DNA of 64,000 bases from Shigella phage Sf25. Below, piece by piece: positions 3,627-55,734 of this stretch. The stretch's first letter is position 1. Each line of letters starts with the position of its first letter. The notes beneath the pieces are model-generated. The model was not told the DNA's origin. It saw only the letters and a program-made list of their open reading frames with translations, and ran no database searches. The position numbers and the translations under genes were made by a program. The stretch lies in the sequence record MF327009; one strand, 5' to 3'.

Positions 3627-4150
3627 TATACTTCCAATGAGCGCTGATTTAGGAGAATCCATGGAAGGTTCTTCTATCGACGTCACCTTTACCGCTCAAT
3701 TAGAAACAGGTGAAACGTTAGTATCTATAAATATAACTAGTTACGAAGAAACTCCTGGGGTTTTAGTAGAAGAAAATCGTTTATATGGAACGTATGAATC
3801 TGTATTTGGATTTGGAAATGATGCGTTGAAATATCGTTTAGACGTTGGTGGTGATTGGACAGAAAAAATGGCATCTATGAGTTCTATTTCATCTGGTCAA
3901 TACACAATTGATGGATCGAGGATTGACATTGGCTAATATACTTCCAATGAGCGCTGATTTAGGAGAATCCATGGAAGGTTCTTCTATCGACGTCACCTTT
4001 ACCGCTCAATTAGAAACAGGTGAAACGTTAGTATCTATAAATATAACTAGTTACGAAGAAACTCCTGGGGTTTTAGTAGAAGAAAATCGTTTATATGGAA
4101 CGTATGAATCTGTATTTGGATTTGGAAATGATGCGTTGAAATATCGTTTA
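3531..4150. repeat. perfect tandem duplication, 2 x 310 bp (3531-3840 and 3841-4150)
   Basis: identical sequence at offset 310; spans gene 5 3' end and gene 5.1 5' end. Confidence 0.95.
3601..3936 (+). other. chimeric ORF created by the duplication: first 80 codons of 5.1 fused in frame to last ~30 codons of gp5
   Basis: 112-aa ORF; C-terminus VGGDWTEKMASMSSISSGQYTIDGSRIDIG is identical to the gp5 C-terminus. Confidence 0.7.
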
Positions 4151-40759: not shown

Positions 40760-41237
40760 AGAAGTTTCTATTCCTAAAATGGGTCTTAAACACTATAACA
40801 TTTTAAAAGATGTTAAAGGTCCTGATGAAAATTTAAAACTTCTTATTGATTCTATTTGTCCGAATTTATCACCGGCAGAAGTTGATTTCGTTTCTATTCA
40901 TCTATTGGAATTTAATGGAAAGATTAAATCTCGTAAAGAAATAGATGGTTATACTTATGACATTAATGATGTTTATGTATGCCAAAGATTGGAATTTCAA
41001 TACCAAGGAAATACATTTTATTTTAGACCTCCTGGAAAATTTGAACAATTTTTAACTGTAAGCGATATGTTATCCAAATGCTTGCTTAAGGTCAATGATG
41101 AAGTTAAAGAAATTAATTTTCTTGAGATGCCAGCATTCGTTTTAAAATGGGCAAATGATATTTTTACAACTTTAGCAATTCCTGGCCCTAATGGTCCAAT
41201 AACCGGAATTGGCAATATTATTGGATTATTTGAATGA
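40704..41237 (+). CDS. 28: gp28 baseplate hub distal subunit
   Basis: 177 aa; T4 length and synteny. Confidence 0.85.
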
Positions 41238-54022: not shown

Positions 54023-54355
54023 TTATTTTACTACTTTCCAGTGCTTCATGTCAAGTTTACCAACTTTTTTCATCTTCTCAATTAAGCGTTCGGCACGTTG
54101 GCGAGCTGTAACATAATACCATTCACCTAATTCATTTTGTTCAATTTTTCCAACGATTACTGTATTCAATTCATAAATCCAACCAGTAAAGAAATTATGA
54201 ACTTGAATTGTAAAGGTGAAATCTGTTCCCATACCTTCTGTTGTTTCTACTTCAATAATATCACCTTCAACTGCCATTAAGAACCACATAGTTTCATCAT
54301 ATTTACCATTGAAGCATTTAGTTTTAACTGCAGCGTTCAGATTAATCGTTTTCAT
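54023..54355 (-). CDS. hypothetical early protein
   Basis: 110-aa ORF preceded by an early promoter. Confidence 0.55.
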   Translation of the reverse strand: MKTINLNAAVKTKCFNGKYDETMWFLMAVEGDIIEVETTEGMGTDFTFTIQVHNFFTGWIYELNTVIVGKIEQNELGEWYYVTARQRAERLIEKMKKVGKLDMKHWKVVK

Positions 54356-54411: not shown

Positions 54412-54430
54412 CAACTTTGTGCAATCTTTG

Positions 54431-54460
54431 GAAAATAAAAAAGGACTCCCGAAGGAGTCC
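54431..54460 (-). terminator. rho-independent terminator (GGACTCC-CGAA-GGAGTCC hairpin plus U-run) after the duplicated basic-protein gene
   Basis: perfect 7-bp stem followed on the minus strand by TTTTTTATTTTC. Confidence 0.65.
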
Positions 54461-54465
54461 TCAAC

Positions 54466-54807
54466 TTATGCTTTCTGCTTACCAAAACGAGAAGCATCAT
54501 CTCGAAGAACCGCACGTGCTCGGCGCATGATCTTCTCAACAGTTTGATTGATACGAGAGTTCGACCCACGCTTGTAGCCAGCGCGTTTAGAATCACCAAC
54601 TTTCTTTTCAACTGCTTTCTTTGCTTTAGCTTGTTTTTTCTGCTTACCAAAACGAGAAGCATCATCTCGAAGAACCGCACGTGCTCGGCGCATGATCTTC
54701 TCAACAGTTTGATTGATACGAGAGTTCGACCCACGCTTGTAGCCAGCGCGTTTAGAATCACCAACTTTCTTTTCAACTGCTTTCTTTGCTTTAGCTTGTT
54801 TTGCCAT
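54466..54807 (-). CDS. small lysine/arginine-rich protein carrying an in-frame 55-codon tandem duplication
   Basis: from ATG 54807: MAKQAKAKKAVEKK...RFGKQK then KQAKAKKAVEKK...RFGKQKA; 113 aa, about 58 aa without the duplication. Confidence 0.65.
   Translation of the reverse strand: MAKQAKAKKAVEKKVGDSKRAGYKRGSNSRINQTVEKIMRRARAVLRDDASRFGKQKKQAKAKKAVEKKVGDSKRAGYKRGSNSRINQTVEKIMRRARAVLRDDASRFGKQKA
54472..54801. repeat. perfect tandem duplication, 2 x 165 bp (54472-54636 and 54637-54801)
   Basis: identical at offset 165, in frame within the basic-protein gene. Confidence 0.95.
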
Positions 54808-55095
54808 TATAAATTCTCTTTTAAATGAAAATGCAGGACTTATTGGCATTGCCTGCGCAAGCCCTCAAGGGGAACATAGGTTTTTGGATATTTAACGACC
54901 AGGATAACCATAAACCCGTCATCATACCACCAAGACTTACACAGATAACACTTTTCTGACGCATGATAGTAACATTCAAGAGGTACACCGTAAAACTGCC
55001 GGGGTCTTGAAACTATAATGATTCGCAAATCATTAATCAGACAGTTCGACGGCTCCTCGATTTAGCTCACACTAAGGCAGTGAATCTCCAATAAA

Positions 55096-55344
55096 TTACT
55101 TCAATGTTACCACAAAGTGACGAACTGCTTTTCGTGCAGCAGAAGCCAGAGGCTTAGCATACTTAAGTTCATCTTTTTCCTGGAGCTCAGCAGCTAATGC
55201 AGTTTGAGCAGGATTCAGATGTTTGAAATAACGCAGGATTTCAAGAGCTTCGGCTTCAACATCAATAGATGCGCCATAGTTTTCGTGACCATTATTCCAT
55301 GCGTTTCGTTGCAGTTCAAGAGCGTGTTGTAATTGTTTAATCAT
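55096..55344 (-). CDS. rIII: rIII lysis-inhibition accessory protein
   Basis: 82-aa ORF directly downstream of gene 31 as in T4. Confidence 0.7.
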   Translation of the reverse strand: MIKQLQHALELQRNAWNNGHENYGASIDVEAEALEILRYFKHLNPAQTALAAELQEKDELKYAKPLASAARKAVRHFVVTLK

Positions 55345-55428
55345 TTAAAAATTCTCGTTAGAGATTAAAACTCGGTAGTCACGTTCTTCTGAATTTCATC
55401 TTCTTTCGACAGATCTCTCAGTTGTAGA

Positions 55429-55734
55429 CTAACAGGTAACGAATTTTTGTTTAATTTCTTTTGGCTGCTTAAGACCCAGAGCTACAAAAGGGTGTGGAAC
55501 GTTTCGAATTTGACCAACTGGAAGAGAAGTCAAATCACCAACTTCACAGAAACCTTCAGGAACATCAGGACCAACAGAGTGAACTACACACAGTTCAGGA
55601 ACTTCACCTTGAACACGTTTACCGATAATAAGTCCTGATTCTGTAACTTCTTCATCACCGGCTTGTGCAGGTTCAGAAACTAAAATAACATATTCACCGA
55701 CAGCACGAATTGGTAGCTGTTGTACTTCAGACAT
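55429..55734 (-). CDS. 31: gp31 co-chaperonin (GroES analogue)
   Basis: 101-aa [25 protein letters not shown]...; T4 synteny. Confidence 0.8.

Follow-up and report, generated by a model that had tools for sequence, protein, structure and literature searches.

The long rIII-30.9 spacer of T4-type phages is a strongly conserved non-coding region with predicted RNA folds, a pseudoknot among them

Why a phage genome otherwise densely packed with genes should keep a long gap between rIII and 30.9, and what this gap contains, is the question raised by the 64,000 nucleotides of Shigella phage Sf25 DNA (record MF327009; hereafter, the window) that were analyzed here. The window is that of a T6-like Tequatrovirus, with the 1.2 kb around the spacer sharing 99.8% identity with Escherichia phage SholemSchwarzbard and 99.2% with T6, and every local gene (cd, 31.2, 31.1, 31, rIII, 30.9, and 30.8) is carried by the minus strand. 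Downstream of rIII, the next long minus-strand open reading frame (ORF) starts at 54849, which leaves a gap of exactly 246 bp (54850-55095), as had been put forward in an earlier note on this DNA. The 14 codons with which that ORF opens (MPISPAFSFKREFI) are, however, not conserved, and gene 30.9 begins at MAKQ in the T4 annotation and in all distant homologs. The true non-coding stretch is therefore 288 nt long (54808-55095), so that the proposed length of about 246 bp is real as far as the ORF start is concerned, but extends further when the conserved 30.9 start is taken as the boundary. That the spacer is unusually long amid dense genes is borne out by a crude ORF tiling of the window, which gave a median gap of 49 nt and only three uncovered stretches above 246 bp. 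As one longer apparent gap (40760-41233) is on checking a real overlapping gene, the spacer ranks among the longest gaps in the 64 kb. Its GC content of 0.40-0.41, set against about 0.32-0.37 in the neighboring genes, likewise agrees with the GC-balanced composition described for it before. Moreover, each of the 38 related loci with the same gene order has a gap of 120-416 nt between rIII and 30.9. The positions of all features discussed here are collected in Table 1.

Table 1. Genes, predicted RNA elements, and other features at and around the rIII-30.9 spacer (window positions, unless a related locus is named).
Feature	Position	Strand	Remarks
Gene 31	55429-55734	minus	
93-bp deletion, junction	55428-55432		relative to T4 (L004) and SholemSchwarzbard (L002)
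Module F, decorated hairpin	55376-55431	minus	in the 31-rIII spacer, then GAGUUUUAAU
rIII	55096-55344	minus	
rIII stop codon, TAA	55096-55098	minus	upstream boundary of the spacer
A1, short hairpin UCAC/GUGA with conserved 9-nt loop UGCCUUAGU	55066-55084	minus	covariation; MFE fold agrees
A2, long irregular three-helix domain with inner hairpin	54976-55060	minus	RNAalifold; MFE -25.9 kcal/mol
X, hairpin	54925-54971	minus	presence/absence polymorphism; inner-stem variation
C, H-type pseudoknot	54874-54931	minus	covariation; 5' flank UAUGAU conserved
C, stem S1	54915-54920 with 54897-54903	minus	
C, stem S2	54906-54911 with 54876-54882	minus	
D, small hairpin CCC-loop-GGG	54858-54875	minus	context GU(A/U)CCC...GGGCUUG conserved
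E, hairpin GCAGG/CCUGC with conserved 14-nt loop CAAUGCCAAUAAGU, then AUUUUCAUUU tail	54823-54856 (hairpin 54833-54856)	minus	terminator-like
Shine-Dalgarno-masking hairpin AUUUUC/GAGAAU	54813-54832	minus	pairs the Shine-Dalgarno-like GAGA of 30.9; 93% of cells paired
Hexamer UAAG(U/A)C, in the loops of A2, X, and E	55003-55008, 54934-54939, 54838-54843	minus	
62-aa ORF	54840-55028		TTG start
Gene 30.9 start codon, ATG (MAKQ...)	54805-54807	minus	conserved; downstream boundary of the spacer
Tandem duplication in 30.9	54472-54802	minus	
Strong terminator GAGGACUCC-UUCG-GGAGUCC plus U run	54441-54462	minus	directly 3' of 30.9
Gene 30.8	54023-54355	minus	
Module B	L005, about 1285-1425	minus of that locus	also in L016, L017, L019, L023-L035
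A2 and C of phage A7_1	L099, 3486-3623	tRNA strand	upstream of the first tRNA of the cluster
phi92-like insert	L101, 1463-1805		phage arall; compared with L102 (phage alia)
30.9-like ORF, 44 aa	L038, 2735-2869		

With regard to coding capacity, the 62-aa ORF called in the spacer had been judged not credible and without a ribosome-binding context, and both judgments stand. Neither this ORF nor the smaller ones in the spacer match a Pfam or PHROG family, none of the candidates (62, 34, and 18 aa long) is preceded by a Shine-Dalgarno sequence, and the 62-aa frame is broken by indels in close relatives. In T4, this takes the form of a 44-bp deletion in the middle of the frame, whereas Mosigvirus phages differ by several 1-nt indels (for example, GACGGG becomes GACGAGG, CCUGGUCG becomes CCUGUCG, and a run of five As is cut to four). 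Homology to a degraded ORF had been named as something that would speak against a structured or regulatory region, and here the outcome favors the earlier view, with no ORF conserved and an intact longer ORF in the gap of none of the relatives examined. The spacer is thus non-coding. Two related ideas were also set aside. An upstream ORF starting from the conserved AUGAUG beside the pseudoknot ranges from 1 to 34 codons, is missing in several genera, and has no consistent Shine-Dalgarno sequence, and a -1 frameshift or read-through signal finds neither a slippery site nor an overlapping frame.

As judged from sequence comparison, the spacer is under strong purifying selection, tighter than that on the genes at both sides. 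Between the window and five Mosigvirus-type relatives, the aligned spacer positions share 91-94% identity, as compared with 48-53% at the four-fold degenerate sites of genes 31, rIII, 30.9, and 30.8. When gaps are counted as differences, the values are 85-89% for the spacer and 70-84% for the flanking coding sequences. Moreover, the stretch from the pseudoknot to hairpin E is nearly invariant in Tequatrovirus, Mosigvirus, and Dhakavirus. The spacer is single-copy in each of 770 phage records.

The earlier proposal that the spacer holds a structured RNA or a regulatory region is supported by compensatory changes that keep its helices, along with a constraint far above that at the neutral sites of the flanking genes. 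Fold prediction, one of the checks suggested for this proposal, came out differently, in that folding the sequence by itself gave no significant gain in stability over shuffled sequences, be it on the minus strand (z = -0.94) or on the plus strand (z = -0.31), and the structural evidence is thus comparative rather than thermodynamic. When the full spacers of 19 close relatives are aligned, the paired cells amount to 98.4% and two-sided changes occur at seven pairs, a count that was reached in one of 500 shuffles. Because G-U pairs in several helices would be A-C on the other strand, this signal is RNA-level and specific to the rIII strand. From the overall set of about 30 distinct sequences, many closely related, we regard the spacer as a strongly conserved region of non-coding RNA that is predicted to fold, with a pseudoknot included, and that is neither junk nor a dead gene.

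Within this region we distinguish several modules, which in the related loci with the rIII-30.9 gene order are always located between these two genes and in the same orientation. The stem of A1 reads CAC/GUG in Tequatrovirus, CGC/GCG in Mosigvirus, and UGC/GCA as well as AGC/GCU in Klebsiella-type phages. Domain A2 is made up of the helices GAGG/CCUC, GCCGU/ACGGU, and GAACUGUC/GGCAGUUU, along with an inner hairpin (UAAUGAUU-UGCG-AAUCAUUA) and a 15 nt unpaired stretch. Its helices were recovered by RNAalifold on the relatives, with compensatory changes at six pairs, and the counted pairs are 97-100% paired. Hairpin X has an outer stem (UACUAUCA/UGGUGGUA) with two U-G pairs, an inner stem that varies between CAGA/UCUG and CAGC/GCUG, and a loop that ends in UAAGUC; in locus L024, the X motif is the loop of a terminator hairpin. 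Hairpin D occurs in nearly all spacers at a position that varies relative to the other modules, though as its stem barely varies, covariation is of little use for it. Hairpin E combines a 5-bp stem (four G-C pairs) with its long loop and tail at -6.9 kcal/mol, and went uncalled in a terminator scan because the loop limit of the scan is 8 nt. In L036 and L021, this stem is GAACUGG/CCAGUUC, with the loop consensus unchanged. Next to the hairpin that pairs the Shine-Dalgarno-like sequence of 30.9, analogous UCC...GGA pairings were found by eye 5' of 30.9 in other genera. In fact, a U-tailed stem-loop and a pairing of the 30.9 ribosome site lie directly before the 30.9 AUG in every genus, though the sequences differ. 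We also noticed that three separate loops, namely the A2 multiloop and those of X and E, carry the hexamer UAAG(U/A)C toward their 3' side (CAAGAC in the A2 of the window, UAAGAC in that of most relatives). The hexamer, which recurs in the loops of terminators from other genera, could be a recognition motif common to these elements.

Among the modules, the compensatory support is strongest for pseudoknot C, which was found in every spacer examined. In 27 distinct sequences from many genera, aligned by hand, 84.6% of cells pair and two-sided changes are seen at 8 of 13 pairs, giving a covariation score of 0.432 as against 0.164 +/- 0.021 for shuffled alignments (0 of 500 reaching it) and at most 0.162 for slid partners. 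A plain MAFFT alignment of S1 alone agrees with the hand-fitted one (0.435 versus 0.131). An A-rich 14-nt loop (GUUAAAUAUCCAAA) connects S1 and S2, the unpaired nucleotides are very highly conserved, and a covariance model of C has a single match in the window, at 62.8 bits. Here, S2, taken up to 54912, reads UAUGG/CCUAUG, and exactly UAUGG/CCUAAG in L036, which we take to resemble the 11-nt GAAA-tetraloop receptor. The idea of such a tetraloop/receptor contact was dropped, as the likeness of S2 does not correlate with GAAA loops, which are carried by modules B and F.

To place these domains among known RNAs, the Rfam search suggested beforehand was carried out (Rfam 15), and it returned no match in the spacer at E up to 10. 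Similarly, a search of the whole window gave no match at the gathering score, the longer version from GRNsp7 gave none, and 11 diverse related loci were without a match at E up to 0.5. No tRNA or tmRNA was found by ARAGORN in the T4, GRNsp7, and PM123 loci, nor an Rfam tRNA match in the spacer, whose likeness to a tRNA is confined to the initial 8 nt (UGGAGAUU), with which a phi92-type tRNA-Gln also begins. An origin from the host was rejected, with no match in 5,426 E. coli genomes, and two conserved strings had no match in 185,579 bacterial and archaeal species genomes. A metagenome scan gave only eight contigs, none with a nearby tRNA gene, and pattern matches in viral contigs of about 4-5 kb proved to be unrelated coding sequence (...FGYQER...). 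Searches for a promoter in the spacer found no sigma-70-like site and, by eye, no convincing T4 middle or late consensus; its two GGAG motifs do not match the GGAGRAYARAA consensus of RegB sites. The spacer is unmentioned in a review of T4 post-transcriptional control, a T4 dual-omics paper, and a survey of phage structured RNAs. No description of a spacer RNA turned up in the literature searched, a body that excludes older subscription-journal work on the T4 cd-30 region, and in the part of it accessible to a search for 'gp30.9' the sole match was an unrelated genome report. We conclude that the spacer domains are new to the RNA databases and the literature searched, and that in kind they are phage structured regulatory or non-coding RNA.

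The order and combination of modules differ by genus. T4 has the arrangement A1-A2-C-D-E, to which T6 and the window add X, whereas in GRNsp7 and some Mosigvirus phages a 135-nt domain, B, takes the place of X. Klebsiella-type phages show the order C-A1-B-D-F, and in other genera a canonical terminator or module F is located at the position of E. As the module order changes, a single large fold is incompatible with these arrangements. In five of the six most distant relatives, rIII abuts an unrelated gene and the spacer is missing. The sixth, locus L038, carries a basic 30.9-like ORF (…KGYKRKTNKRINQ…) only 9 nt past rIII and no spacer, and hence the genes do not need it. Module B is absent from the window and T4, though it is found once each in 407 phage records (Klebsiella, Escherichia, Enterobacter, and others). 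Self-closing by means of its own covarying stem, it contains five predicted helices, a GNRA hairpin, and an invariant 20-mer (GCUAACGGUGUGCAACAGAU), with compensatory changes at 17 of 44 predicted pairs, and has neither an Rfam match nor a bacterial copy. Module F, which lies between 31 and rIII in the window, replaces E just 5' of 30.9 in the Klebsiella-type phages. By eye, its helices show compensation as well (GUAGUC/GACUAC versus GGGAGC/GCUCCC, CUGA/UCAG versus CCGA/UCGG, and AUCU/AGAU versus AACU/AGUU), and it too has no Rfam match. No further copies of the modules were found within the 64-kb window, nor did any of them match E. coli or the other bacterial genomes searched. Group I intron, hammerhead, and twister cores were considered and rejected (no Rfam matches; cores judged by eye).

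The modules also occur in the tRNA clusters of other phages. In phage A7_1 (Vequintavirinae), A2 and C alone lie on the tRNA strand directly upstream of the first tRNA, adjoined by neither rIII nor 30.9. They share 80-93% identity with their counterparts and show further compensatory changes. Adjacent to these modules (3652-3730 of that locus), Rfam detects a tRNA at 33.9 bits that ARAGORN misses. In 17 phi92-like Justusliebigvirus records, a complete T4-type spacer, followed by the last 28 codons of rIII, is found between tRNA-Gly and tRNA-Gln. This T4-derived insert of 331 bp, in circularly permuted order, lies between two copies of a 13-nt repeat (TTTATTGGAGATT), which equals both the T4 spacer start and the 5' end of the phi92-like tRNA-Gln. 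In phage alia, the site is empty and the repeat is present once. Circular permutation together with the flanking repeat is the signature of a small circle or tandem copy recombining at short identity. At this insert site, gene 113 in the phi92 RefSeq record (NC_023693) is labelled 'lysis inhibition; accessory protein'.

Beside the spacer, the window itself is rearranged. The duplicated basic-protein gene reported at its downstream side is indeed 30.9 with a perfect in-frame tandem duplication of 165 bp (55 codons), which nearly doubles the protein to 113 aa from MAKQ, as against 58 aa in T4. Among the best 30 matches listed, all with matched spans shorter than the query, this duplication is absent. 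On the other side, a 93-bp deletion relative to T4 and the 99.8%-identical SholemSchwarzbard takes away the final 10 codons of gene 31, so that gp31 stops at ...KFVTC* and has 101 rather than 111 aa. Also lost are the TATAAATA late promoter that precedes rIII and, from the stem of module F, two G-C pairs.

What the RNA does can be approached from this layout. Tentatively, and at somewhat less than even odds, we favor the spacer as a cis-acting intercistronic RNA that would control message stability, termination, and the translation of 30.9. It would be transcribed on the minus strand within a 31-rIII-30.9 message and fold into a string of domains, each independent of the others (A1, A2, X, pseudoknot C, D, and E). 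Of these, the upstream ones with their conserved loops may serve as nuclease barriers or as sites of processing or recognition and so determine how stable the rIII message is and where its 3' end lies. Hairpin E and its U tract could then attenuate transcription into 30.9, and the hairpin over the Shine-Dalgarno sequence could limit translation initiation there. This model is favored by the combination of no internal promoter, a strong terminator only after 30.9, and the stem-loop and ribosome-site pairing kept in each genus. In fact, the terminator directly 3' of 30.9 is the sole strong one, and an early-promoter-like site for 30.8 follows it. Weak Rfam matches to Atu_C8 and Phe_leader (54427-54510) were discarded as being this terminator. 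Several observations nonetheless fit the cis-acting model poorly. Domain order and the distance to the 30.9 start vary by genus, which is unexpected for cis control through an aptamer plus platform, A2 and C persist with compensatory changes upstream of tRNAs and away from rIII and 30.9, E would make for a weak terminator given its short stem, large loop, and low stability, and the folding energy of the single sequence is unexceptional.

The main rival, which we consider possible though on the unlikely side, is that the spacer comprises one or more genes for stable trans-acting non-coding RNAs cut from the rIII message. Hairpin E would define the 3' end, a role that in other phages would fall to RNase P cutting at the following tRNA, and the conserved loops might bind a host factor, a decoyed defense protein, or the small basic gp30.9. 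Modules that behave as independent units reshuffled among genera, long loops that are near-invariant (in A1, E, and the pseudoknot, and as the 20-nt stretch in the module B of relatives), and survival in tRNA clusters would all fit a processed trans-acting RNA or an RNA-protein particle. Here, the position of A2 and C before the A7_1 tRNAs, and of the whole spacer between the two phi92-like tRNAs, is matched by T4 keeping its own stable RNAs, rnaC and rnaD, in its tRNA cluster. Moreover, C-D-E as the best-conserved part ends in a hairpin and U tract, as do many 3'UTR-derived small RNAs. Against these points, no promoter or processing site was identified, T4-like phages have the spacer in one copy and at one fixed locus, and no sequence similarity to rnaC or rnaD was seen, with the spacer matching a single place per record and the two RNAs compared by eye. 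Also, recombination at the 13-nt identity accounts for the phi92-type insert, and as the piece of rIII within it is of no use, the insert may be a mere passenger. A broader version, in which the spacer belongs to an unrecognized family of multi-domain phage non-coding RNAs (C, A2, and B in about 400 relatives) that act in trans, strikes us as rather unlikely. Members of such a family would be, for example, a decoy or inhibitor of a host RNA-binding or defense protein, an RNA partner of gp30.9, a ribozyme, or an aptamer, and would have been useful enough for independent capture by the tRNA clusters of two unrelated coliphage groups.

It is improbable, on the other hand, that the spacer is a ligand-sensing riboswitch leader for 30.9, with C as the sensor and E and the Shine-Dalgarno hairpin as the expression platform. 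The H-type topology of C with its A-rich tail is that of preQ1 or SAM-II aptamers, its unpaired nucleotides are very highly conserved, and both a terminator-like hairpin and a ribosome-site pairing lie downstream of it. However, the Rfam search gave no aptamer match even at E = 10, no conserved alternative antiterminator pairing is seen by eye, and C is found upstream of a tRNA as well as at distances from about 70 to about 300 nt before the 30.9 start, with other modules intervening in some genera.

Still less credible, to a degree we would call very improbable, is a constraint on the DNA rather than the RNA (for example, a hot spot of recombination or insertion, a binding site for a protein, or an element used in replication), or else a recent horizontal spread. 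Module presence or absence does differ among nearly identical phages (T4, T6, and GRNsp7), the segment has been transferred into other phage families, and a tandem duplication and a deletion are located right beside the spacer in the window. Even so, the helices accept G-U and not the A-C of the opposite strand, which points to RNA, lineage-specific differences speak against a very recent sweep, and no known T4 replication origin is located here. Finally, the chance is close to nil that the spacer is the remnant of a decayed protein gene or a source of micro-proteins (62 aa, 34 aa reading MMTGLW..., or 18 aa reading MFPLRACAGNANKSCIFI), for although some automatic annotations place ORFs here and the 18-aa frame is open in Tequatrovirus and Mosigvirus with one synonymous change, its ATG is ACG in L010 and missing from the equivalent position in L036, L021, and the Klebsiella-type phages, and the changes are compensatory for helices and not synonymous, in addition to the indels, the missing Shine-Dalgarno sequences, and the family searches described above.

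Under the favored cis-acting reading, an RNA that regulates rIII or 30.9 would add a new post-transcriptional control element to the repertoire of T4, the best-studied virulent phage, in which one of the longest non-coding stretches is among the most constrained sequences of its neighborhood. If the RNA instead acts in trans, it would represent a kind of non-coding RNA so far overlooked in T4-type phages, and module B would be its more elaborate counterpart in hundreds of Klebsiella and Escherichia phages used in phage-therapy work. Intact RNA domains that are reshuffled and captured by other phages also make a tractable case of modular evolution at the RNA level. In practical terms, annotation pipelines put spurious 'hypothetical proteins' on the spacer.

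When known systems are compared, the intercistronic RNase III processing hairpins of T7 early mRNA and the 3'UTR-derived small RNAs of enterobacteria offer partial likenesses. With the former, the spacer has in common a long irregular intercistronic hairpin (A2 stacks about 17 bp), and with the latter a conserved region downstream of a coding sequence that ends in a hairpin and U tract. However, a pseudoknot and large conserved loops are atypical of both. As for size and complexity, module B is comparable to riboswitch aptamers and small ribozymes. Pseudoknot C shares with the preQ1-I/II and SAM-II aptamers a short stem, a loop that pairs downstream, and an A-rich strand across the first stem, and the spacer shares with them a terminator-like hairpin and ribosome-site pairing further downstream. 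It differs from these aptamers in having no covariance-model match, a variable platform spacing, and an additional location upstream of a tRNA. The rnaC and rnaD of T4 (species 1 and 2 RNAs), of 120-140 nt, resemble the spacer in being phage-encoded and non-coding. Their home in T4 is the tRNA cluster, and in phi92-like and Vequintavirinae phages the spacer modules likewise sit among tRNA genes and on the same strand as these, whereas the spacer of T4-like phages is outside the tRNA cluster and has no tRNA-like 3' end. The PeSL (promoter-early plus stem-loop) cassettes are reported to mediate modular shuffling in T4-type genomes (PMC2839356, PMC4122927), and they resemble the spacer modules in being short conserved intergenic T4-type elements tied to reshuffling of the neighboring DNA. 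However, PeSL combine a promoter with a simple terminator hairpin and are repeated through hyperplastic regions, whereas the spacer modules are complex folds and locus-specific. With no early-promoter consensus and a single copy, the spacer is not a PeSL cassette.

The remaining comparison is with the gene 32 leader pseudoknot of T-even phages, an autoregulatory operator that a 2010 paper regarded as perhaps the sole viral pseudoknot to serve in the autoregulation of translation (PMC3014915). Like the spacer, this leader has an H-type pseudoknot in the untranslated leader of a T4-type message, tens of nucleotides 5' of the gene for a small nucleic-acid-binding or basic protein, and A/U-rich sequence with UUAAA after the pseudoknot (PMC3014915). 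Of the features that define the gene 32 operator, the spacer displays the H-type leader pseudoknot, with two crossing helices and covariation, though not the fixed distance and unstructured A+U sequence up to the ribosome site, as hairpins D and E intervene and the start is about 70 to about 300 nt away, depending on the genus. It is also at a different locus and, by eye against the T2 pseudoknot sequence, shows no sequence similarity. Given these differences in locus, sequence, and spacing, we do not count the spacer as a member of the gene 32 operator family, which is nevertheless its closest analogue in logic.
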